The notes under the pieces are model-generated. The model worked only from the letters and a program-made list of their open reading frames with translations, was not told the DNA's origin and did no database searches. From Heterodontus francisci (Eukaryota), in contig NC_090399.1 in NCBI RefSeq assembly GCF_036365525.1, positions 54,468,430 through 54,532,429 of the forward strand: a stretch of 64,000 nucleotides of DNA, read 5' to 3'. Within the stretch, counting starts at the first letter, position 1; each line of letters opens with the position of its first letter. The position numbers and the translations under genes are program-made. Positions 13,628-64,000 of the stretch are shown piece after piece.

Positions 13628-16600
13628 GGTAGGAAAGATATTAGCTATGACGATGTGGAATCTGTATGGGTAGAGCTGAGAAACACTAAGGGGCAAAAAG
13701 CGTTAGTGGGGGTTGTATATAGACCCGCAAACTGTAGTGGTGATGTTCGGAATGGCATTAAACAGGAAATTAGAGATGCATGCGATAAAGGAACATCTGT
13801 AATTATGGGTGAATTTAATCTGCATATAGATTGGGCAAATCAAATTAGTCACAATACCGTAGAGGAGGAATTCATGGAGTGTATACGGGATGGTTTTCTG
13901 GACCAATACGTTGAGGAACCAACTAGAGAACAGGCCCTCATAGACTGGGTATTGTGTAATGAGAGAGAAATAATTGACAATCTAGTTATGCAAAACCCCT
14001 TGGGGATAAGAGACCATAATATGATAGAATTCTTCATCAAGATGGAGAGTGACGTGGTTGATTCTGAGACTAGGGTCCTGAATCTTAATAAAGGAAACTA
14101 CGAAGGTATGAGGCACGACTTGGCCATGACGGATTGGGAAACATTACCTGAAGGATGACTGTGGATAGACAATGGCAAACATTCAAAGAGCGCATGGATG
14201 AACTGCGACAATTGTTTATCCCTGTCTGGCGCAAAAGTAAAATGGGAAAGGTAGCCAAACCATGGCTTACAAAGGAAATTAGAGATAGCATTAGATCAAA
14301 GGAAGAGGCATATAAATTTGCCAGAAAAAACAACAAACCTGAGGATTGGAAGCAGTTTAGAATTCAGCAAATGAGGACCAAGGGATTGATTAAGAAGTGG
14401 AAAATAGAGTATGAGAGCAAGCTTTCGGGGAACATAAAAACTGACTGTAAAAGTTTCTATAGGGATGTGAAGAGAAAAAGATTGGTGAAGACAAGCGTAG
14501 GTCCCTTACAATCAGAAACAGGGGAATTTATTATGGGGAACAAAGAAATGGCTGACCAACTGAATGCATACTTTGGTTCTGTCTTCATAAAGGACGACAC
14601 AAATATCATACCAGAAATGTTGGGGAACACAGGGTTTAGTGAGAGAGAGGAACTGAAGGAAATCAGTATTAGTAGAGAAATGGTATTAGGGAAATTAATG
14701 GGACTGAAGGCCGATAGATCCCCAGGGCCTGATAATCTACATCCCAGAATACTTAAGGAAGTGGCCCTAGAAATAGTGGTCATCTATCAAGATTCTATAG
14801 ACTCTGGAACAGTTCCTACAGATTGGAGGGTAGCTAATGTAACCCCACTATTTAAAAAGGGAGGTAGAGAGAAAACAGGAAATTATAGACCAGTCAGCCT
14901 GATGTCGGTAGTGGGGAAAATTCTAGAGTCCATTATCAAAGATTTTATAGCAGAGCACTTGGAGAACAGTGGTAGAATCGGGGAGTCAGCATGGATTTAC
15001 GAAAGGGAAATCATGCTTGTCAAATGTACTAGAATTCTTCGAGGATGTAACTAGTAGAGTTGATGAGGGACAGCCAGTGGATGTGGTTTATTTGGACTTT
15101 CAGAAGGCTTTCGACAAAGTCCTACCTAAGAGATTAGCGTGTAAAATTAAAGCACATGAGATAGGGGGTAGTGTATTGCGATGGATAGAAAATTGGTTGG
15201 CAGACAGGAAACAAAGAGTAGCAATAAACAGGTCTTTTTCCTAATGGTAGGCAGTGACTAGTGGGGTATCGCAGGGATCGGTGCTAGGACCTCAGCTATT
15301 CACAATATATATTCATGATTTAGATGAGGGAACTAAATGTAATATCTCCAGATTTGCAGATGACACAAAACTGGGTGGGAGAGTAAGTTGTGAGGAGGAT
15401 GCAGAGAGGCTTCAGGGTGATTTGGACAAGTTGAGTGAGTGGGCAAATGCATGGCAGATGCAGTATAATGTGGATAAATGTGAGGTTATCCACTTTGGTA
15501 GCAAAAACAGGAAGGCAGATTATTATCTGTTCAGCTATAAACTGAGAGAGGGGAATACGCAATGAACATAGAACATAGAACAGTACAGCACAGTACAGGC
15601 CCTTCGGCCCATGATGTTGTGCCGAACCTTTAACCTACTCTAAGATCAAACTAACTACCTACCCTTCATTCTACTATCATCCATGTACCTATCCAAGAGT
15701 CGCTTAAATGCCCCTAATGTATCTGCTTCTACTACCACCGCTGGCAGCGCATTCCACGCACCCACCACTCTCTGTGTAAAGAACCTACCTTTGACATCTC
15801 CCCGAAACCTTCCTCCAATCACCTTAAAATGATGCCCCCTGGTGATAGCCCTTTCCACCCTGGGAAAAAGTCTCTGACTATCCACTCTATCTATGCCTCT
15901 CATCATCTTGTACCCCTCAATCAAGTCACCTCTCATCCTTCTTCGCTCCAATGAGAAAAGCCCTAGCTCCCTCAATCTTTCTTCGTAGGACATGCCCTCC
16001 AGTCCAGGCAGCATCCTGGTAAATCTCCTCTGCACCCTCTCTAAAGCTTCCACATCCTTCCTATAATGAGGCGACCAGAACTGAACACAATATTCCAAGT
16101 GTGGTCGAACCAGGACCTTATAGAGCTGCAGCATAACCTCGTGGCTCTTAAACTCAATCCCCCTGTTAATGAAAGCCAACACACCATATGCCTTCTTAAC
16201 AACCCTATCAACTTGGGTGGCAACTTTGAGCGATCTATGGACATGGACCCCAACATCCCTCTGTTCCTCCACACTACCAAGAACCCTGTCTTTAAGCCTG
16301 TATTCTGCATTCAAATTCGACCTTCCAAGATGAATCACTTCACACTTTTCCAGGTTGAACTCCATCTGCCACTTCTCAGCCCAGCTCTGCATCCTGTCAA
16401 TGTCCTGTTGCAACCTACAACAGCCTTCCACACTATCCACAACTCCAGCAGCCTTCGTGTCATCGGCAAACTTGCTAACCCAGCCTTCCACTTCCTCATC
16501 CAAGTCATTTATAAAAATCACAAAGAGCAGAGGTCCCAGAACAGATCCTTGTGGAACACCACTGGTCACCGAGCTCCATGCTGAATACTTTCCATCTACT

Positions 16601-17535
16601 ACCACCCTCTGACTTCTATGGGCCAGCCAATGTTGTATCCAGACAGCCAACTTTCCCTGTATCCCATGCCTCCTTACTTTCTGAATGAGCCTACCATGGG
16701 GAACCTTATCAAACGCCTTGCTAAAATCCATGTACACCACATCCACTGCTCTTCCTTCATCAATGTGATTTGTCACATCTTCAAAGAATTCAATAAGGCT
16801 TGTGAGGCATGACCTGCCCCTCACAAAGCCATGAGACCTAGGTGTTCTCATACACAAGTCGCTGAAGGTAAGCATGCAGGTACGACAGGCGGTAAAAAAG
16901 GCAAATGGTATGTTGGCCTTCATAGTGAGAAGATTCGAGTACAGTAGCAAGGATGTCTTGCTGCAATTATACAGGACCTTGGTGAGGCCACACCTGGAAT
17001 ATTGTGTGCAGTTTTGGTCTCCTTATCTGAGGAAGGATATTCTTGCTCTCGAGAGAGTGCAGCAAAGGTTTACCAGACTGATTCCTGGGATGGTGGGACT
17101 GATGTATGAGGTGAGATTGAGTCGGTTAGGATTATATCCTCTAGTGTTCAGACAAATGAGGGGGGATCTTATAGAAACCTATAAAATTCTAACAGGACTT
17201 GACAGGGTAGATGCAGGTGGAGGAGTCCAGAACCAGGGGTCATAGTCTAAGGATACGGGGTAAACCTTTCAGGACTGAGATGAGGAGAAATTTCTTCACC
17301 CAGAGAGTGGTGAGCCTGTGGAATTCGCTACCACAGAAAGCAGTTGAGGCCAAGACATTGTATGTTTTCAAGAAGGAGTTAGATATAGCCCTTGGGGCGA
17401 AAGGGATCAAAGGATATGGGGGGATAGTGGGAGCAGGTGACTAAGTTGGATGATTAGCCATGATTATAATGAATGGCAGAGTAGGCTTGAAGGGTCGAAT
17501 GGTCTACTCCTGTTCCTATTTCCTATGTTTCTGCT
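13628..17535 (+). mobile_element. Near-complete CR1 ORF2 (APE endonuclease + RT), split by a nested CR1
   Basis: ESVWVEL..VGVVYRP..MGEFN (EN), SPGPDNLHPR, NYRPVSL, DFQKAFDKV, SQGSVLGP, FADDTKL. Resumes at ~16833 and runs to the 3' UTR. Confidence 0.95.
15566..16833 (-). mobile_element. Younger CR1 (RT to 3' end) nested antisense in the above
   Basis: Uninterrupted frame HGFVRGRSC...PQGSVLGP..FADD..RMKGR stop. (ACATAGA)n tail at ~15566-15581. Confidence 0.95.
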
Positions 17536-20500
17536 ATGGTTCCAATTGTTTTGTGCTTTCCTTCCAGGTGTCCCTATTGTCGATCACCTCAGCCAGGTGA
17601 ACTGCACAGCTAGGAGTACTGAACACTGCTGGGTTCACTATTCTCTGAGCAGTTTCTTGAGTACCCCTTAAAATATGTGACATCACTTGACACTGGAAAA
17701 ACCCTGTCCAGTGTAACAGAAGCTGATTTTTTCTTACCCTGGGGTGTCAAAGGAATTTGACAGTATCCCTCCAACACATCTGTCTCTTTAAGACACATTG
17801 TGTTGCCCACTCTGTCCATACAGTCCTTTAAATGCGAATTTGGGTAGGAGTCGGCGTTCTTTACCACAGTGACTTTTCTAGAGTCTATGCAAGTTTGAGC
17901 CGTCCCACCAGTTTAGATATCAAGACCATCTGCGAATTCCAGCTGTCCTGACTAGGTTCAACTAAGCTGCCCTTCAGCATGCATTGTACCTCTGCTTCCA
18001 CTTGGTCCTGTCTGTCTGGACCTAAGCAACAAGGATGTTGTTTTAAAAGAATGGCTCTCCCAATACCCACATCATTTGTGGCTAAGGTTGTACATCCTGG
18101 CTTATCCCTACAAACATTTTGAAATGTTGTGAAAACCCTGGTTAGGACTTCACGCTGTTTTGCCTCTTAGTGTAAAAACCTATTGTTTAATTTTCCTAGC
18201 CATTCTGCATTCGCTAATGGGATAGTTGGAGGTTCAATCTGAGAATTTCCTAGGCTTACTTCTGCCTCATCCTCATTATCCTTTTCCTTCTCAACAGTCC
18301 CGATTACCTGACATACCTGCATTGGCTTATCCTCCTCCCTGTGGTAACATGGTTTGAGTACATTTATGTGACACAACCAGTTCTTCATCTGGCGATCAGG
18401 GTTGTCAATCAAGTAATCTACATTACCCACTCTTTTAATCACTCTATATTGGCCACTGAACTGTGCTTTCACTGGTTCTCCCTGTGATGGTAACAACATT
18501 AATACTTCATCCCCTGATTTTATGGTTGGTTTTGGTTTTCCCACCGTTTGACAGGTATGGCACGCCCTACAAAATTGTCTCACATCCTTTGTAAGAACTG
18601 GCCAGTAATAATGTTTGCGTATGTCTGATTTGGTCTTCCGAATTCCCCTATGTCCTGCAAAATGAATGTTATGTGCTAACCTTAATAATTCTTGTTGATA
18701 TTTCGGTGGTACCACTATCTGTTCAACAACTGTCCAGTCTTCATCGGCAGGTCTATGAGGCAGTCTCCATTTCCTCCTCAAAACCCCATTTACCATATAA
18801 TAGCCTTCCAGAACTCCTTTCATCTCAGCTTCTGTCAGAGCCATCTGTTCTATTCAGTATATCTCTGGATCAGCTTGCTGTGCTGCAATGATGGACAATC
18901 TGTTAAACATCTCATCTGGATTATCTAAATCCCTAAATAAGGTTTCAGATGCCTGATTATCTATTTGTGGTGCCCCTTTTACCTCTGACAGTGGATCCTG
19001 TTTAGCCATTGCTCGGGTAACTGCACACATGGGAAATATTCCCAGAACTTGCTCCTGTAATTGCTCCATTTCCTAATTGCACATGTTTCCTCTGTAACTG
19101 TAGGAGAAACTGATGTTTTTGATCCAGCCAAATCGTTTCCTAGGAGTAGATCAATTCCTTTTACTGGTAAACTGTGGACAACACCTGCAGTTACTATCCC
19201 AGATATTAAGTCACTCTCTAGGCATACTTTATACAAAGGTATGGGCATACACTCCCCGCCAATTCCATTAACTAAAACTTTAGTGTTCAAGCCGCTCTCT
19301 GTTGGAAACCTCATATCTTTCCTCAGTAAGAGCATTTGGGTCGCTCCTGTGTCCCTGAGTATAATGATAGGTTTTCCTGCGTCACTTACAGGATACTGAG
19401 TTATTCTCCCCTTTGACAAAAAAAATCATTATAACTCTCAGGTATTTGATTCTTAACCTCTACACTCGTTTTAGTTTTAGTATCTGGTTTCATATTCACA
19501 GCTGTCATTAAAGCTATAGCCTGGTCTCTCATACCCTCAGTCAGAGTCTTTTCCTCTGCACTAACTTTGCGTACCCCAACAAGTCCTATGGGTTTACCTC
19601 GCAATTTCCAGCACTCTGAACCAAGATGACCTGTTTTGTTGCAATGATAACACTTTGGCTTGCAAACCTCACTTCTACCCTCAGCACCTTCCTTTCTGAC
19701 CTGAGGAGGTGATCCTGGGGCATTCCCAACTGTTCCTTCTTGTCCCTGGCTACCTGCCTTCCTTTCACTTCCCCACTTTCTATCCTTCTCGGATTTATGG
19801 GGGTGAAGGACAAAATAGGTTGGCTTATTCACAAGCTTAAAATCATTAGCAATCTCCGCTACTTGCCTAGCTTTCAAAACTTTCAGGTTATCTATATGAG
19901 TTCTCACTACTGAAGGAATGAAGTTTTTCAACTCTTCTAAGAGAATCAATTCTCAAAGGTTCTCATATGTGGTTTCCATCTTCAGTGCCCATATCCAATG
20001 GTCAAAATTCATTTGCTTCACCCTCTCAAATTCTAAATATTTCTGCCCAGTCAATCTCTGTAAATTCCTAAACTTCTGACGGTAAGCTTCAGGGACTAAC
20101 TCATTCGCAGCGTGAATAGCCTTTTTTGCCATCTCATAATCTGCAGAAGCCTCTTCCGGAAGCATGGTATAAGCTTCATGAGCTCTGCCTACCAAACTGC
20201 TTTGCATGAGCAATGTCCAGCTTTCTTTTGGCCGTTTCATCTGTTTGGTTATTTTTTCAAAAGATATGAAAAATGCCTCTACGTCCCTTTCCTCGAACTT
20301 AGGAAGAGCCTGTATAAATTTAAACAACTTCTCACTGGGTCCTGATCTAAACTCAGATTCTTCCTGACCCGAATTTTCCCTGGATTTAAGACTACCCTTT
20401 TTCTTAGTTCCATCTCTTTTAACTTAAATTCCCTTTAATCTCTTTCACTTTCTCTCTGAAATGCTCTCTCTTTCTCCCTTTCCTCTTTTTCCAATTCAAG

Positions 20501-21225
20501 TTTTCTTAATTCTTTTTCCCGCTGAAGCTCCAGATTTTTCATTTCTAACTGAATCATATCCAATTCCACTGCATCAGTCTTGGACCTATTACCTTCATGT
20601 GTCTCATATTCCCTTTCTTGTTCCTCGTGTTGCCCTTCATCTGTATCATCATCATCATCTTCTACTAATTCCAGATGTTCGGCTATCTTGCTAATTATCC
20701 CTGCTTTTTTGGCATCTGATTTCAATTCCAACCTCAATTTCGTTGCCAATTCTTTTAATTTGTTCTTAGTTAAAGTTATCAAGTCACTCAGGGAAGCATT
20801 CTGCTTTCCCAAAAACTCTGCTACAACCGCTAGTGCCATAACAATGGTATAGACTGTACCTTATTATACAAAAGGCCTGGTTCTTTTAATTTCTTTGTAA
20901 TTGGTGTCAGATTTAGATCCCAACAATTAAGTTTCCATTTAATAAGATCCCAGACTCAAGATCAATTAATCTGATGCCAAACGCAAGGCCCCATTTAAAA
21001 TATGTTATCCCAGGGATGAGTGATTACTATGATTCCAAATGTAAGCCCTCCAAATTTGTCTGATTCTGATCCCAGATGCGAGCCACCGAATTAAATATGG
21101 TTGAACTGCGAATGAGCCCCCAATCAAGATATGATTCAAATCCCGAGAAACCCAATTAATATGTAATTCAAATCTTGAGTGAGCCCCCAATTAATATGTT
21201 ATTCAAATCCCTGGACGAGCCCCCA
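17536..21225 (-). mobile_element. Gmr1-like Gypsy LTR retrotransposon internal region (gag-PR-IN-RT order), decayed, IN core deleted
   Basis: SCAN-related gag (FEERDVEAFFISFEK..LVGRAHEAY), CCHC knuckle CYHCNKTGHLGSEC, protease ILRDTGA, IN HHCC (LAH..FAGH..CRACHTC) placed before RT remnants (DSYP..DCMDRVG..GYCQIPL). Confidence 0.92.
20910..21225 (-). repeat. Tandem array of ~33-36 bp degenerate tRNA-Pro PBS units
   Basis: Best unit 21202-21225 TTCAAATCCCTGGACGAGCCCCCA versus tRNA-Pro 3' end TTCAAATCCCGGACGAGCCCCCA. Further copies end at ~21189, 21154 and 21122, with more diverged ones leftwards, each followed by ATTAATATG-like sequence. Confidence 0.75.
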
Positions 21226-21232
21226 ATAAATA

Positions 21233-22530
21233 TGTTATGACTGACTGCTCCAGTCAAAGCCCCCAATCAAAGTATATGATTCTGATTCTGGTAGGAGAAA
21301 CCCACTGATAATTCAGTCCCGTCACTCCACAGATCACCTAACATATCATTTAAAACTTTCCAAATTAAAGGGGCAGCACAGTGGCGCAATGGTTAGCACC
21401 ACAGCCTCACAGCTCCAGGGACCCGGGTTCAATTCTGGGTACTGCCTGTGCGGAGTTTGCAAGTTCTCCCTGTGACCGCGTGGGTTTTCGCCGGGTGCTC
21501 CGGTTTCCTCCCACTGCCAAAGACTTGCAGGTGATAGGTAAATTGGCCATTGTAAATTGCCCCTAGTGTAGGTAGGGAATATGGGATTACTGTAGGGTTA
21601 GTGTAAATGGGTATTTCTTGGTCAGCACAGACTCGGTGGGCCGAATGGCCTGTTTCAGTGCTGTATCTTTAAAAAAAATAAAAATAAAAGAAAGACCCAG
21701 CCAAATTGTACCATCTATTAACCCCCAAATGAGGCTAACCAAACCAGGTGTCTTTAAATCAACAAATTAACTGTTTAATTAAAAGAACTAAATTCTTAAG
21801 CACTATGAAGATATAAACAACATTTAAAATAGAAAAAAATAGAGCCCTTGCAAATTTACAGTCCAACATTGCTTGAAGTCCTCACAGAATGTGGCTTGAA
21901 GTCCTCAAAGTTGTCTGATATGGGGAAAAAAGGTTCTTCCAGAGTAGAACAGTCCACAGTCTAACTCCAACAGTAGGTAATGCTTTCCTTCTCCAGTGAA
22001 TTTCAACAATTAACAACTTGAAAACACTTTCAATAGAATCAAGCTGACTTTAGAGTTTTTGAGGGATGAAAGATTGTTACAGTCTAACTTCCTTTTCTTC
22101 AATTTAAATTACCGGAGATCTCTGTTTTGGTTTGACCTTTTTTAGAATTTTGAGAGGTAATAATTCAACAGACTAAAATCCAATTCCTTCAATTTAAATG
22201 GTTGAGTGCTCTTTTTCCAGGTGCTAACACCAGCTGTCTGTGTCCGTGTGTCCTCTGTGTCCTGTTAGAACAAACTCTTCAACTAAAAAGCCAGTTCAAA
22301 ATTGAATTGTAACAAATGTATCGCTTAAGACTCACTCTCAATGGCTGTATCTATGGTAACGAGAATGCACCCTTTGAATCGCAGTGTCCAAATGGCTGTT
22401 TCTAAGGCAACGAAAATGCACCTTCCTATAACTTCTGAGGCTTGCTGGTTCTCAAAGCAATACTGATCTTTTGCAAGACTTAAAGGCAAACCGCATATTC
22501 CTGGAAAAAAAAAACTACAGGACCATGACA
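21233..22530 (-). mobile_element. 5' LTR of the Gmr1-like element (contains an HE1 SINE)
   Basis: + strand TGTTATGA (21233)...CATGACA (22530), adjacent to the PBS. Confidence 0.8.
21370..21690 (+). mobile_element. HE1-type SINE
   Basis: A box TGGCGCAATGG, B box GGTTCAATTC, CR1-like tail and A-rich end. Confidence 0.92.
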
Positions 22531-23795
22531 CTGTGTATCCCTTTAAGTATTCTGCAGGTGTCAAGGAGATCACCTCTCATTTTTCGAAACTCTAGGGAAT
22601 ACAGGCCCAGTTTCTCAGTCTCTCTTCATAGGACAGTCCCACCATCCCATGAACAAGTCTGGTGAACCTTCGTTGCACACCCTCTATGGCAATAATATCC
22701 TTCCTAAGGTAAGGAATCAAAACTGCACACAGTACTCCAGTTTCGGTCTAACCAAAGTTCTATACACTTGAAGGAAGACTTCACTACTCCTGTACTCAAA
22801 TTGTCCTGCGATAAAGGCTAACATACCATTAGCCTTCCTAATTGTGTGCTGCACCTGCGTGTTAGCTTTCAGTGACTTATTGACAAGGATAACCAGGTCC
22901 CGTTGTACATCTACACATTCTAATTTCTTACCATTTAAGAAATACTCTGCACATCTATTCCGCCTACCAAAGTGGATAACCTCACATTTTTCCACATTAT
23001 ATTCCATCTGCCATGCTCTTATCCACTCACTAAGTCTGTCCAAATCCTCTTGAAGCCGCCCACAACACACATTCCCACCTAGTTTTGTGTCACCCATGAA
23101 CTTGGAAATACTACGTTTGGTCTCACATCCAAATCATTGATATATATTGTGAACAGCCAGGGCTCAAGCACTGATCCCCGCAGTACTCCACTAGTCACAG
23201 CCTGCCAACGCGAAAATGACACGTTTATTCCTACTCTGTTTTTTGCCTGTTAACCTATCCTTAATCCATGCCAGTATATTATCTCCTATCCTATGTGCTT
23301 TAATTTTATGAATGAATTTCCTGTGGGGGACTTTATCAAAAGCCTTCTGAAAATCTAAGTAGACTACGTCCACCAACTCCCCTTTATCAATTCTGTTGAT
23401 AACATCCTCAAAAAACTCTAACAGGTTTGTCAAACTTGATTTCCCATTCATAAATCCATGTTGACTATGCCCAATCAGATCATTATTATCCAAGTGTCCA
23501 TTTATCACATCCTTTAGAATAGATTCTCACATTTTCCCTACTACTGGTGTAAGGCTAATAGGTCTGTAATTCCCTTTTTTCTCTCTCCCTCCCTTCTTAA
23601 ATAGTGGGGTGACATTTCTATCTTCCAATCTGCAGGAACCGTTACAGAATCTATAGAATTTTGCAAGATGATCACCAATGCATCCGCCATCTCCATAGCT
23701 ACCTCTAGGATGGAGAATATCAGGTCCTAGGAACTTATCAACCTTTAGACCCATTAATTTCTCTAATAGAACCTTCTTACTGATGCTAATTTCCT
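22531..23795 (-). mobile_element. CR1 RT fragment
   Basis: NYRPISLT, SQHGFMNGKS, DFQKAFDKVPH, VRPKLEYCVQF. Confidence 0.9.
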
Positions 23796-46039: not shown

Positions 46040-46625
46040 TCACATACCCAGCTCTACCTCACCGCCATCTCTCTCGACCCCTCCACTCTCTCTAAGTTAT
46101 CCGACTGCTTATCCAACATCCAGTACTGGATGAGCAGAAAGTACCTCCAATTAAATATTGGGAAGGCTGAAGCCATTTTCATTGATCTCCATCACAAACT
46201 CCGCTCCCTGTCCACCCACTCTAGCCCTCTCTCTGGTAACCGTCTGAGGCTGAGCCAGTCTGTTTGAAACCTCACTCTCACATCTGACCTGAGATGAGTT
46301 TTCAACCACATAGCCACACCATCACAAAGCCCGCCTATTACCACATCTGTAACATCACCCGACTCTACCCCTGCCTCAGCTCTTCAACTGCCGGAACCCT
46401 CATTCATGCCTTTGTTAACTTAGGACTTGGCCGGCCTCCCACATTCTACCCTCCGTAAACTTGAGGTCATCCAAAACTCCACTGCTTGTCTCCTAAATCA
46501 CATCAAATCAGATTCACCCATCACCCCTCTGCTCGCTGACATACACTGGCTCCCAGTTAAACAACACCTTGATTTAAAAACTCTCATCCTTGTTTTCAAA
46601 TCCCTCCATGGCCTTACCCCACCCT
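46040..46625 (+). mobile_element. L2 LINE RT C-terminal fragment
   Basis: TQLYL..LSDCLSNIQYWMS..LQLNIGKAE, then ITPLLADIHWLPVKQ..ILVFKSLHGLTPPY. Confidence 0.9.
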
Positions 46626-47960
46626 ACCCCATCACATCAGACCCTCACTCCTGACTATGGGGAGACCACTCACTCCTCCCTACCCCATCACATCGGACCC
46701 TCACTCCCGATTGTGAGGAGACCACTCCCCCTCCCTACCCCATCACATCAGACCCTCACTCCGACTGTGGGGAGACCACTCCCTCCTCCCTACCCCATCA
46801 CATCGCACCCTCACTCCTGACTATGGGGAGACCACTCCCCCTCCCTACCCCATCACATCAGACCCCCACTCCTGACTATGGGGAGACCACTCCCTCCTCC
46901 CTACCCCATCACATCGCACCCTCACTCCCGATTGTGAGGAGACCACTCCCCCTCCCTACCCCATCACATCAGACCCTCACTCCTGACTATGGGGAGACCA
47001 CTCCCTCCTCCCTACCCCATCACATCGCACCCTCACTCCCGATTGTGAGGAGACCACTCCCCCTCCCTACCCCATCACATCAGACCCTCACTCCTGACTA
47101 TGGGGAGACCACTCCCTCCTCCCTACCCCATCACATCGCACCCTCACTCCCGATTGTGAGGAGACCACTCCCCCTCCCTACCCCATCACATCAGACCCTC
47201 ACTCCGACTGTGGGGAGACCACTCCCTCCTCCCTACCCCATCACATCGCACCCTCACTCCCGATTGTGAGGAGACCACTCCCCCTCCCTACCCCATCACA
47301 TCAGACCCTCACTCCGACTGTGGGGAGACCACTCCCTCCTCCTTACCCCATCACATCGGACCCTCACTCCCGATTGTGAGGAGACCACTCCTCCTCCCTA
47401 CCCCATCACATCAGACCCTCACTCCAACTGTGGGGAGACCACTCCCCCTCCCTACCCCATCACATCAGACCCTCACTCCTGACTATGGGGAGACCACTCC
47501 CCCTCCCTACCCCATCACATCAGACCCTCACTCCGACTGTGGGGAGACCACTCCCTCCTCCCTACCCCATCACATCGCACCCTCACTCCCGATTGTGAGG
47601 AGACCACTCCCTTCTCCCTACCCCATCACATCGCACCCTCACTCCCGATTGTGAGGAGACCAGTCCCTCCTCCTTACCCCATCACATCGGACCCTCATTC
47701 CTGACTATGGGGAGACCACTCCCTCCTCCCTACCCCATCACATCGGACCCTCACTCCCGATTGTGAGGAGACCACTCCCTCCTCCCTACCCCATCACATC
47801 AGACCCTCACTCCCGATTGTGAGGAGACCACTCCCTCCTCCCTACCCCATCACATCGGACCCTCACTCCCGATTGTGAGGAGACCACTCCCCCTCCCTAC
47901 CCCATCACATCAGACCCTCACTCCTGACTATGGGGAGACCACTCCCTACCCCATCACACA

Positions 47961-48324
47961 GGGCGGCACAGTGGCGCAGTGGTTAGCACCGCAACCTCAC
48001 AGCTCCAGGGACCCGGGTTCGATTCCGGGTACTGCCTGTGTGGAGTTTGTAAGTTCTCCCTGTGTCTGCGTGGGTTTTCTCCAGGTGCTCCGGTTTCCCT
48101 CCACAAGCCAAAAGACTTGCAGGTTGATAGGTAAATTGGCCATTATAAATTGTCACTAGTATAGGTAGGTGGTAGGGAAATATAGGGACAGGTGGGGATG
48201 TTTGGTAGGAATATGGGATTAGTGTAGGATTAGTATAAATGGGTGGTTGATGTTCGGCACAGACTCGGTGGGCCGAAGGGCCTGTTTCAGTGCTGTATCT
48301 CTAATCTAATCTAATCTAATCTAA
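47961..48324 (+). mobile_element. HE1-type SINE within the minisatellite
   Basis: A box TGGCGCAGTGG, B box GGTTCGATTCC, (CTAAT)n tail. Confidence 0.95.
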
Positions 48325-49597
48325 ATCAGACCCTCACTCCCGACTGTGAGAAGACTAGTCACCCCTCCCTACCCCATCACATCGGACCCTCACTCCCGAT
48401 TGTGAGGAGACCACTCCCCCCCGCCCTACCCCATCACATCAGACCCTCACTCCCGACTGTGGAGAGACCACTCCCCCTCCCTACCCCATCACATCAGACC
48501 CTCACTCCTGACTATGGGGAGATCACTCCCTCCTCCCTACCCCATCACATCAGACCCTCACTCCCGGCTGTGGGGAGATCACTCCCTCCTCCCTACCCCA
48601 TCACATCAGACCCTCACTCCCGACTGTGGAGTGACCACTCCCCCTCCCTACCCCATCACATCAGACCCTCACTCCTGACTATGGGGAGATCACTCCCTCC
48701 TCCCTACCCCATCACATCAGACCCTCACTCCCGGCTGTGGGGAGATCACTCCCTCCTCCCTACCCCATCACATCAGACCCTCACTCCCGACTGTGGGGAG
48801 ATCACTCCCTCCTCCCTACCCCATCACATCAGACCCTCACTCCTGACTATGGGGAGACCACTCCCTACCCCATCACATCAGACCCTCACACCCGACTGTG
48901 AGAAGACAAGTCCCACCTCACTGCCCATCACATCAGACCCTCACTCCCGACTGTGGAGAGACCACTCCCCCTCCGTACCCCATCACATCAGACCCTCACT
49001 CCTGACTATGGGGAGATCACTCCCTCCTCCCTACCCCATCACATCAGACCCTCACTCCCGGCTGTGGGGAGATCACTCCCTCCTCCCTACCCCATCACAT
49101 CAGACCCTCACTCCCGACTGTGGGGAGATCACTCCCTCCTCCCTACCCCATCACATCAGACCCTCACTCCTGACTATGGGGAGATCACTCCCTCCTCCCT
49201 ACCCCATCACATCAGACCCTCACTCCTGACTATGGGGAGATCACTCCCTTCTCCCTACCCCATCACATCGCACCCTCACTCCCGATTGTGAGGAGACCAG
49301 TCCCTCCTCCTTACCCCATCACATCGGACCCTCATTCCTGACTATGGGGAGACCACTCCCTCCTCCCTACCCCATCACATCGGACTCTCACTCCCGATTG
49401 TGAGGAGACCACTCCCTCCTCCCTACCCCATCACATCAGACCCTCACTCCCGATTGTGAGGAGACCACTCCCTCCTCCTTACCCCATCACATCGGACCCT
49501 CACTCCCGATTGTGAGGAGACCACTCCCCCTCCCTACCCCATCACATCAGACCCTCACTCCTGACTATGGGGAGACCACTCCCTACCCCATCACACA

Positions 49598-49961
49598 GGG
49601 CGGCACAGTGGCGCAGTGGTTAGCACCGCAACCTCACAGCTCCAGGGACCCGGGTTCGATTCCGGGTACTGCCTGTGTGGAGTTTGTAAGTTCTCCCTGT
49701 GTCTGCGTGGGTTTTCTCCGGGTGCTCCGGTTTCCCTCCACAAGCCAAAAGACTTGCAGGTTGATAGGTAAATTGGCCATTATAAATTGTCACTAGTATA
49801 GGTAGGTGGTAGGGAAATATAGGGACAGGTGGGGATGTTTGGTAGGAATATGGGATTAGTGTAGGATTAGTATAAATGGGTGGTTGATGTTCGGCACAGA
49901 CTCGGTGGGCCGAAGGGCCTGTTTCAGTGCTGTATCTCTAATCTAATCTAATCTAATCTAA
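49598..49961 (+). mobile_element. Duplicate of the HE1 SINE, offset 1637 bp
   Basis: Same junctions and tail as 47961-48324. One substitution noticed. Confidence 0.95.
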
Positions 49962-51334
49962 ATCAGACCCTCACTCCCGACTGTGAGAAGACTAGTCACC
50001 CCTCCCTACCCCATCACATCGGACCCTCACTCCCGATTGTGAGGAGACCACTCCCCCCCGCCCTACCCCATCACATCAGACCCTCACTCCCGACTGTGGA
50101 GAGACCACTCCCCCTCCCTACCCCATCACATCAGACCCTCACTCCTGACTATGGGGAGATCACTCCCTCCTCCCTACCCCATCACATCAGACCCTCACTC
50201 CCGGCTGTGGGGAGATCACTCCCTCCTCCCTACCCCATCACATCAGACCCTCACTCCCGACTGTGGAGAGACCACTCCCCCTCCCTACCCCATCACATCA
50301 GACCCTCACTCCTGACTATGGGGAGATCACTCCCTCCTCCCTACCCCATCACATCAGACCCTCACTCCCGGCTGTGGGGAGATCACTCCCTCCTCCCTAC
50401 CCCATCACATCAGACCCTCACTCCCGACTGTGGGGAGATCACTCCCTCCTCCCTACCCCATCACATCAGACCCTCACTCCTGACTATGGGGAGACCACTC
50501 CCTACCCCATCACATCAGACCCTCACTCCCGACTGTGAGAAGACAAGTCCCACCTCACTGCCCATCACATCAGACCCTCACTCCCGACTGTGGAGAGACC
50601 ACTCCCCCTCCGTACCCCATCACATCAGACCCTCACTCCTGACTATGGGGAGATCACTCCCTCCTCCCTACCCCATCACATCAGACCCTCACTCCCGGCT
50701 GTGGGGATATCACTCCCTCCTCCCTACCCCATCACATCAGACCCTCACTCCCGACTGTGGGGAGATCACTCCCTCCTCCCTACCCCATCACATCAGACCC
50801 TCACTCCTGACTATGGGGAGATCACTCCCTCCTCCCTACCCCATCACATCAGACCCTCACTCCCGACTGTGAGAAGACAAGTCCCACCTCACTGCCCATC
50901 ACATCAGACCCTCACTCCCGACTGTGGAGAGACCACTCCCCCTCCGTACCCCATCACATCAGACCCTCACTCCCGACTGTGAGAAGACAAGTCCCACCTC
51001 ACTGCCCATCACATCGGACCCTCACTCCCGGCTGTGGGGAGACCACTCCCTCCTCCCTACCCCATCACATCAGACCCTCACTCCCGGCTGTGGGGAGACC
51101 ACTCCCTCCTCCCTAACCAATCGCAACAGACCCTACAAGTGGAAACATTTTCTCTACCCTATCAAACATTACACATCTATCAGGTCATCTCTCAGTCTTG
51201 TCTTTCCTAGAGGGAGCATGACAGGCTGTTCAATCATCCCAGCTAGGTATTACCCTCTCAGTTCTGGTACCATTCCTGTGGGAATTCAGCTTTAACTGAG
51301 ATTTGGAATTTGATTGTGGGACTCAAAGTCCAGA

Positions 51335-61879: not shown

Positions 61880-64000
61880 CAGGGAGAGGGTGGTGTGTGT
61901 CCTGGAGAGAGGAGTGTGAGTGTCCCAGGGAGTGGGATCAGTGGCCCCAGGAGAGGAGTTGGGGGGAGGGTCAGTGTCCCGGGAGAGGGTCAGTGACCCG
62001 GGGAGGGGGTCAGTGTCCTGGGGAGAGGGGTGGGGAGAGGGTCAGTGTCCCGCAGAGAGGGTCAGTGTCCCGGGGGGAGGGTCAGTGTCCCGGGAAGAGG
62101 GTCAGTGTCCTGGGGAGATGGGTTGGGGGGGGGTGGGGGTCAGTATCCCGGGGAGAGGGGTTGGGGAGAGTCTGTGTCCCGGAGAGAGGAGTGTGAGTGT
62201 CCCAGGGAGTGGGGTCAGTGGCCCCAGGAGAGGGGTTGGGGGGAGGGTCAGAGTCCCGGGAGAGGGTCAGTGTCCTGGGGAGATGGGTTGGGGGGAGGGT
62301 CAGAGTCCCGGGGAGAGCGGTTGGGGAGAGTCTGTGTCCCTGAGAGAGGGGCTGGGGGGAAAGTCTGTGTCCCGGGGAGAGGGGCTGGGGAGAGGGGTTG
62401 GAGAGAGGGTCAGTGTCCTGGGGAGAGGGTCAGTGTCCCAGGGAGAGGGGTTGGGGGAAGGGTCAGTGTCTCGTGGAGAGGAGTTGGGGAGGGGGTCACT
62501 GTCCTGGGGAGAGGGTCAGTGACCCAGGGAGAGGGGCTGGGGGGAAAGTCTGTGTCCCGGGGAGAGGGGTTGGGGAGAGGGGTTGGAGAGAGGGTCAGTG
62601 TCCCGGGGAGAGGGTCAGTGTCGCGGGAAGAGGGTCAGTGTCCCAGGGAGAGGGGTTGGGGGAAGGGTCAGTGTCTCGGGGAGAGGGGTTAGGGAGAGGG
62701 TCAATTTCCCGGGGAGAGGGTTTGGGGAGAGGGTCAGTGTCCCGGGGAGAGGGGTTGGGGAGAGGGTCAGTGTCCCGGGGAGAGGAGTTGCGGAGGGGGT
62801 CACTGTCCTGGGGAGAGGGTCAGTGAACCGGGGAGGGGGTCAGTGTCCTGGGGAGAGGGGTGGGGAGAGGGTCAGTGTCCCGCGGAGAGGGTCAGTGTCC
62901 CGGGGAGAGGGTCAGTGTCCCGGGGAGAGGGTCAGTGTCCCGGGGAGAGGATCAGTGTCCCGGGAAGAGGATCAGTGTCCTGGGGAGATGGGTTGGGGGG
63001 AGGGTCAGTGTCCCAGGGAGAGGGGTTGGGGAGAGTATGTGTCCCGGAGAGAGGAGTGTGAGTGTCCCAGGGAGTGGGGTCAGTGGCCCCAGGAGAGGGG
63101 TTGGGGGGAGGGTCAGTGTCCCGGGAAGAGGGACAGTGTCCCGGGAAGAGGGGTTGGGGGGAGAGGGGCAGCATCCCGGGGAGAGGGGTTGGGGGGAGGG
63201 TCAGTGTCCAGGGGAGAAGGATGGGGAGAGGGGTTGGGGAGAGGGGCAGAGTCCCGGGGAGAGGGGTTGGGGAGAGGGGTTGGGGAGAGGGGCAGTGTCC
63301 CGGGGAGAGGGGTTTGGGGGAGGGTCAGTGTCCCGGGGAGAAGGGTTGGGGAGAGGGTCAGTATCCCGGGGAGAAGGGTTGGGGGGAGGGTCAGTGTCCC
63401 GGGGTGAGGGGTTGGGGGGAAGGATCAGTGTCGTGGGGAGAGGGGTTGGGGAGAGGGTCAGTGTCCCGGGGAGAGGGGTTGGGGGGCAGGTCAGTGTCCC
63501 GGGGAGAGGGGTTGGGGAGAGGGTCAGTGTCCCGGGGAGAGGGGTTGGGGAGAGTCGGTGTCCCGGAGAAAGGGGTTGGGGAGAGGGTCAGTGTCCCGGG
63601 AGAGGGGTTGGGGAGAGGGGTTGGGGAGAGGGTTTGGGGAGAGGGTTTGGGGAGAGGGTCAGTGCCCCGGGGAGTGGGGTTGGGGGGAGGGTCAGTGTCC
63701 TGGGGAGAGGGGTTGGGGAGAGGTTCAGTGTCCCGGGAAGAGGGTCAGTATCCCGGGGAGAGGGTTTGGGAGAGGGTCAGTGTCCCGGGGAGAGGGGTTG
63801 GGGAGAGGTTCAGTGTCGCGGGGAGAGGAGTAGGGGGGAGGGTCAGTGTCCCGGGAAGAGGGTCCGTGTCCCAGGGAGAGGGTCAGTATCCAGCAGAGAG
63901 GGTCAGTGTCCTGGGGAGAAGGTCAGTGTCCCGGGAAGAGGGTCAGTGTCCCGGGAAGAGGGGTTGGGGGGAGAGGGGCAGCATCCCGGGGAGAGGGGTT
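61880..64000 (+). repeat. G-rich compound minisatellite in MHC intron 2
   Basis: ~19-21 bp GAGAGGGTCAGTGTCCCGGG units interspersed with GAGGGGTTGGGG units. A longer block recurs at ~61905, 62183 and 63047. Confidence 0.95.

Follow-up and report, generated by a model that had tools for sequence, protein, structure and literature searches.

LTR retrotransposons are taught as having a single primer site, and a leader in which that site appears several times over raises the question of how the copies came to be there and whether they serve any purpose. Such a leader is found in a stretch of 64,000 nucleotides from Heterodontus francisci (NC_090399.1, positions 54,468,430 to 54,532,429; hereafter the window), for which the preliminary description had claimed a tandem array of tRNA-Pro primer-binding sites (PBS) between an LTR and gag. 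The array proved real, and ten units of 27–38 bp could be cut from it at 20900–21225, between the LTR end (21233) and gag (20839); with the spacer included the array occupies 20900–21232. The element lies on the minus strand, so the motif strings of that description give the tRNA-sense strand. The reading favored here, with a probability of roughly 70%, is that the array grew unit by unit at its LTR side through slips of strand transfer and is a tolerated by-product of which only the first unit is needed.

The element that carries the array is a dead Gmr1-like Gypsy copy. Its assignment to the Gmr1-like Ty3/Gypsy elements, made from sequence, is based on the SCAN-type homologues of its capsid and on an integrase located upstream of the reverse transcriptase (RT). 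The SCAN domain (PF02023) was present in 20 of 21 homologues of the capsid, and the decayed gag frame of the window itself fell below Pfam significance for this domain. The domain order in full-length homologues is SCAN-integrase-RT-RNase H, and the element was placed among the Gmr1-like Gypsy elements because integrase precedes RT in these homologues and the window is collinear with them; the integrase-before-RT order of Gmr1 elements was reportedly set out by Goodwin and Poulter in 2002. The SCAN domain has been linked to Gmr1-like elements (PMC4592553). The broken gag-pol region (17561–20839, minus strand) retains a SCAN-type capsid, a zinc knuckle, a protease region, the ends of the integrase and the start of RT; gag is interrupted, the integrase core is deleted and the sequence stops within RT. 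No 3′ LTR of this copy was found within the 64-kb window, the 3′ end of the copy having been lost, and other family copies have paired LTRs with TG...CA ends. Nested CR1/L2-type LINE fragments occupy 13628–17500 and 22540–23530 of the window, and one of them truncates the RT of the element. The family is abundant, with 5,464 first-look candidates obtained from a leader query (40 scored).

The 5′ LTR (21233–22530, minus strand) measures approximately 970 bp without a SINE insert and has TG...CA ends, the outer end being set from other copies and from target duplications. Its inner end lies at 21233, as sequences diverge immediately after this position in 22 of 29 hits selected by U5 and in 13 second LTRs. 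An exact 4-bp target duplication was present at 11 of the 15 solo LTRs for which both ends were found. The insert at 21370–21689 (plus strand) is probably a tRNA-derived SINE, judging by its tRNA-like head and A-rich tail; it is repeated elsewhere in the window and is private to the window copy, the corresponding site being empty in other copies of the family. Further repeats in the window are a 56-bp satellite at 46617–51134, within which a SINE-containing block of ~1.64 kb is itself duplicated, and a G-rich 20/33-bp satellite with higher-order periods at 61961–64000.

Each unit of the array is built from a tRNA-Pro primer site, the LTR-terminal CA and a spacer, and units 1–9 each close with 2–5 nt of the LTR terminus followed by spacer. 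All lie on the minus strand. The LTR end is separated from the current PBS by a 7-nt spacer (21226–21232) which has the same length in the closest single-PBS family. The unit next to the LTR had been described as matching about 23 nt of tRNA including the T-loop, and this was borne out: unit 1 (21190–21225) is a 23-nt complement of the 3′ end of the host tRNA-Pro, including the CCA, with one inserted base in the window copy. The match halts at the T-loop and gives way to a copy of the LTR end and a spacer rather than to further tRNA. Unit 2 occupies 21155–21189, unit 3 21123–21154 and unit 4 21090–21122. Units 1–3 carry the 23-nt form of the PBS; unit 3 is shortened in the window, and in the subfamily in which it comes first it has 24 nt and is tRNA-exact at PBS positions 7–23. 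Units 5–9 (20938–21089) are decayed, shorter PBS copies which end near 18–20 nt and are followed by CA or AACA and spacer. Unit 10 (20900–20937) is the most distal.

The units had been said to decay with distance from the LTR. Median tRNA matches for units 1–10, measured over 32 copies, were 19, 13, 9, 10, 10, 7, 6, 6.5, 7 and 6, and the inner units lose the bases that pair with the CCA. Similarity to unit 1 falls with distance, giving a rank correlation of −0.84 for units 2–10, so that the decay holds as a trend although the gradient is not strictly monotone. The tRNA-likeness of the distal units gave a divided result. Compared with the tRNA individually, units 1–5 beat dinucleotide shuffles (p ≤ 0.015) and units 6–10 were no better than the shuffles (p 0.09–0.35), but when whole units were compared with unit 1, all of units 2–10 beat shuffles, at p values of 0.0007–0.034 that are somewhat optimistic as unit boundaries were set by hand. 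No case is made for other tRNAs as the source of the inner units: in a comparison set of Pro, Thr, Lys, Cys and Phe genes, the Cys, Thr and Phe genes matched units 6, 7 and 10 equally or slightly better, at values near the shuffle level. Units 6 and 8 (0.73) and units 7 and 9 (0.67) are mutually alike, which may reflect a block duplication; the even/odd split ranks only 2 of 35, making a two-unit periodicity suggestive only.

The array is a trait of the family and not a local slippage confined to one copy, the same array being carried by all 30 of the best hits, which were chosen by similarity. Other Gmr1-like families of the genome have a single site. Among loci selected by gag, the junctions of other families contained one PBS in 19 of 19 cases, and the two nearest families, selected by junction similarity, had one PBS in 20 of 20 and 6 of 6 copies. 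Gmr1-like loci from metagenomes with enough upstream DNA contained exactly one PBS in 38 of 55 cases and two in none. The closest single-PBS family is 84% identical to the array family in gag. When its leader was compared with the array, the ancestral single PBS aligned to the far end, at unit 10 in a multiple alignment or at unit 9 in an end-anchored pairwise alignment; unit 9 was the first placement and was weakened by further outgroup copies, which favor unit 10. The single PBSs of related Gmr1-like families (L212, L226, L383, L232, L248, L275, L289) often regain complementarity to the T-loop. In these sites the match resumes after changes around tRNA position 58, a pattern that read-through of a modified base might leave.

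Copies of the array family fall into nested subfamilies led by unit 4 (7 units), unit 3 (8 units), unit 2 (9 units) and unit 1 (10 units), with units 5–9 present in all of them. For type A, picked by its diverged LTR end alone, 30 loci were fetched from 73 matches; two of these have no leader, two are one duplicated locus, and all 28 leaders begin with unit 4. The long unit 3 leads in 19 of the 25 loci fetched from 31 matches, with unit 4 directly next in 13, and this 8-unit subfamily has its own LTR markers; the first unit with which its members (L421–L445) multiplied departs from tRNA-Pro at PBS positions 5–6. Unit 2 followed by unit 3 leads in 11 of the 14 loci fetched from 96 matches, the other three having unit 4 first. 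Some family copies occur at regular spacing (G000:C30 14.43–14.81 Mb, C2279, C15 77.24 Mb) and lie within segmental or tandem duplications. No subfamilies with 2–6 units were found, so the order among units 5–9 is that given by decay.

The relative ages of the subfamilies were estimated from gag segments of at least 420 nt. Departure of gag from its own group was 0.062 for type A (n = 18), 0.046 for the 8-unit form (n = 7) and 0.041 for the 10-unit form (n = 42); type A differed from the 10-unit form with p = 1e-6, and the 8-unit and 10-unit forms showed no difference (p = 0.14). A control with similarly selected 10-unit copies gave 0.106 for type A against 0.080, the pairwise values not being independent. 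Eight gag sites separate the 7-unit from the 10-unit form, and the closest single-PBS family has the A state at 6–8 of these sites in 6 of 6 copies. The median number of A-state sites of the eight was 7 for type A, 2 for the 8-unit form, and 1 for both the 9-unit and 10-unit forms. Gag of the 10-unit type was found in two of the 18 type A copies, which indicates recombination. Dating by LTR pairs, which covered the A and 10-unit forms, failed to separate them (0.067, n = 13 of 20 fetched, against 0.054, n = 12 of 20; p = 0.13), and a tree of LTRs was star-like and unresolved, good support being confined to 4 of its 73 branches; the unit-9 labels on it were poorly defined and were disregarded. 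The suggestion that units were added in a polarized manner at the LTR junction and left a chronological record is thus upheld by the nested series of 7, 8, 9 and 10 units, by the oldest gag occurring with the shortest array and by the ancestral PBS lying at the far end, and the growth chronology may be regarded as largely supported from these sequence comparisons.

How a unit might be gained is indicated by copies in which the junction is rearranged. Unit 1 is doubled or tripled in seven copies. In five of these the twins belong to different subtypes and in two to one subtype; in four, the twin on the LTR side is of the tRNA-exact type. One of the patterns used for collecting twins favors exact units, and three further hits proved not to be twins. 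Twins of mixed subtype are not what a duplication after insertion would yield. In L171 two U5 subtypes are joined via the spacer and 8 nt of PBS, in L389 a PBS head and LTR end have been added in front, and in L426 and L443 the first unit of the 8-unit subfamily stands ahead of a full 10-unit array. Together with the mixed twins, the sequences of these four copies point to two genomes meeting at the junction, as expected in reverse transcription. Among the 17 loci shown, tRNA-exact heads were found on unit-3 tails in six and on unit-2 tails in five, which would fit either a plus strand landing among the inner units or a mismatched first unit having been rewritten. The changes in the head of unit 2 are lineage mutations common to unit 4, indicating that unit 2 was copied from another genome copy and not fresh from tRNA; not every unit, to judge from such shared changes, is a fresh tRNA copy. 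Aberrant strand transfer, which had been put forward as the cause, is sustained in part: some junctions join different subtypes, but repeated copying from the primer does not describe every unit, as unit 2 derives from a genome copy and units 6–9 are alike in pairs.

A sequence of steps can be proposed on this basis. Minus-strand DNA would end just past the PBS, within the spacer and the last 2–5 nt of the LTR. A plus strand consisting of LTR, spacer and primer copy, or else the first unit from a genome packaged alongside, would join there by short homology. Such joining would replace the annealing of PBS to PBS, placing a new unit in front and pushing the old PBS inward, where units no longer rewritten from the primer would decay. 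Landing on an inner unit would delete the units ahead of it. The exact step may be the plus-strand transfer or the last switch of the minus strand. RTs, including that of Tf1, can switch on 2-nt homology in vitro (PMC3035444). Gains and losses were counted in 63 leaders chosen by gag or by the leader end and hence blind to the array, loci without an LTR end or leader anchor being left out of the leader and LTR counts. Gains were seen in 1–3 of these leaders, and approximately 29 lacked whole units relative to the 10-unit form, a figure that was read by eye and includes some older subfamilies. An explanation of all short leaders as deletions was accordingly dropped, since part of them belong to those subfamilies.

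The series could also be read in the opposite direction, with a long array being ancestral and the 7-, 8- and 9-unit forms having lost units from the LTR side. Losses on this side are the commonest change in single copies and the LTR-pair dates overlap, but the 7-unit form is the more diverged and has gag states in common with two outgroup families of the single-PBS type, and unit 3, shortened when it stands third, is intact when it comes first. This makes loss a very improbable origin of the series. Slippage or unequal recombination of host DNA might instead have doubled the junction, unit 1 being the best match through selection and rewriting, so that a gradient would exist without any order of addition. 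Adjacent units are homologous enough for slippage, duplications of units 2 and 3 do occur (L152, L157, L175), and both the one-subtype twins and the paired likeness of units 6–9 speak for such a process. The gradient nevertheless stands when unit 1 is left out, the subfamilies differ only by LTR-side units and are ordered by gag markers, and most of the twins are of different subtypes. Slippage in the host is already strained as an explanation and appears decidedly unlikely as the source of the array as a whole.

The variants of unit 1 were compared with the tRNA genes of the host. Of 30 copies, 7 carry a variant with two changes that is identical to one form of the host tRNA-Pro gene, a form with 13 exact matches in a tRNA array of at least 402 genes. 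As a sign of rewriting from the primer this is suggestive only, and subfamily A shares one of these changes. No host tRNA gene was found for the variant of unit 1 with a +1 insertion (11 of the 29 listed) or for the head of unit 3, and unit 1 seldom shows the commonest host tRNA-Pro variant. With two frequent first-unit variants lacking a host gene and the commonest host variant rare, rewriting from the primer would appear to be incomplete. The tRNA array itself is a tandem repeat with a period of ~4.6 kb and at least 402 matches in which intron-containing tRNA-Pro alternates with tRNA-Phe, located at G000:C35 ~16.4–26 Mb, at C28 ~62–64 Mb and on unplaced contigs (L144–L146, L191–L200). Further intron-containing tRNA-Pro genes were observed at L131, L141 and L142, many near-identical tRNA-Thr(TGT) genes on C35 and unplaced contigs (L051–L067, L078–L080), and a tRNA-Lys(TTT) cluster on C28 (L068–L073).

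One junction has entered the LTR itself. Unit 0 (21233–21285, minus strand) consists of an old tail, a spacer and a PBS head inside U5, followed by the present LTR end. In single-PBS relatives the LTR end and the start of the PBS fall at the register of unit 0 within U5, and in the closest single-PBS family ~45 nt are missing at its position. Unit 0 would imply that priming once moved to a site downstream and that the LTR absorbed the unit in this way. PBS-like motifs had been noted in the LTR end, and one of them, AAGCCCCCA, belongs to this genuine absorbed junction. The other, GAGAAACCCA, is private to the window copy: its CCA is missing in other copies, and it aligns with ordinary LTR sequence of single-PBS relatives.

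It might be supposed that selection keeps the units. They could offer spare sites for primers or for plus-strand acceptance, act as decoys or escape variants towards tRNA fragments and PBS-binding zinc-finger repressors, or be needed for the structure of the leader. Fragments from the 3′ end of tRNAs can silence LTR elements. Units 5–10 persist in all subfamilies, even though single copies often lose them; units 4, 3 and 2 each led a subfamily that multiplied, showing that imperfect units can serve; and unit 0 records one past priming shift. In mouse, the tRNA-Pro PBS is known to be targeted by repression, and binding of a SCAN zinc-finger protein from a lizard to one Gmr1-like PBS has been predicted (PMC4592553). 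The idea of spare primer sites, which had accompanied the first account of the array, found no support in the LTR right ends: 62 of 62 sampled stop at the normal end and none at an inner unit, and a pattern for LTR ends at the tail of unit 1 gave 0 matches against 39 for a control. In three cases (L186, L433, L561) an extended LTR terminates in the normal LTR end, and a target duplication was found for L186 only. These cases were set aside as proof of downstream priming, being ambiguous and explicable as deletions from the leader to the 3′ LTR. The loss of CCA-pairing bases from the inner units, the folding of the leader, which was no better than that of shuffles (z +1.19), and the multiplication of relatives with one PBS likewise argue against selection for the array, which is considered unlikely. 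A more specific form, in which the array is a selected, self-extending archive of primer sites, with a new unit written in front whenever the active PBS has drifted or has come to be targeted by silencing and the old units serving as backup acceptors or decoys, is thought quite unlikely. If true, this would be a eukaryotic retroelement with a polarized, CRISPR-like memory of its primers.

The array family resembles other Gmr1-like Ty3/Gypsy elements in its SCAN-type capsid, in its integrase before RT and in a tRNA-Pro PBS that follows a GTAACA-type LTR end and a short spacer; it differs from them in having 7–10 sites where relatives have one. HIV-1 with a mismatched PBS yields multiple PBSs in culture, the extra primer sites lying at the U5-PBS junction (PMC1084362). 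These variants are transient culture products of engineered viruses, whereas the shark units have become fixed in one natural subfamily after another, to a depth of up to ten. MAL-type HIV-1 carries a 23-nt duplication on the downstream side of its PBS that is natural and heritable and was present in 14% of isolates, but this is one partial extra copy, and neither an LTR-terminus module nor serial growth is described for it (PMC3185550). A second RT stop near tRNA position 54 has been reported for retroviruses, where complementarity between genome and primer extends beyond 18 nt into the T-loop as it does here; that case concerns lentiviruses and tRNA-Lys, whereas the shark family shows tRNA-Pro and 23 nt in units 1–3, with units 5–9 ending at ~18–20 nt (PMC8599865).

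A looser analogy can be drawn with another ordered array. CRISPR arrays gain units at the leader side and decay at the trailer side, and these give their order. The nested series of 7, 8, 9 and 10 units, with its age and outgroup polarity, parallels this leader-side ordered addition. The array family differs in having neither foreign spacers nor a dedicated integrase of units, its units being the element's own LTR/PBS junction (among the five tRNA types compared). The literature searched, which did not extend to subscription journals, repeat databases or supplements, yielded no account of a serial PBS array in any retrotransposon family.

The locus contains a real, family-wide, polarized array with a partly datable growth series, which is a variant of known errors at the LTR junction and most likely a by-product. 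Leaders of this kind will be misread by annotation tools built to expect a single PBS no more than a few bases from the LTR, and the array itself is a marker by which subfamilies can be ordered. Rare anomalies known from HIV cultures become in this family a fossil series, which allows counts of plus-strand transfer errors, of read-through at tRNA modifications, of the use of primer variants and of shifts of the LTR boundary. In a natural family with hundreds of datable copies, the junction can be followed as it is gained stepwise, moves inward, disappears and, in one case, becomes part of the LTR.
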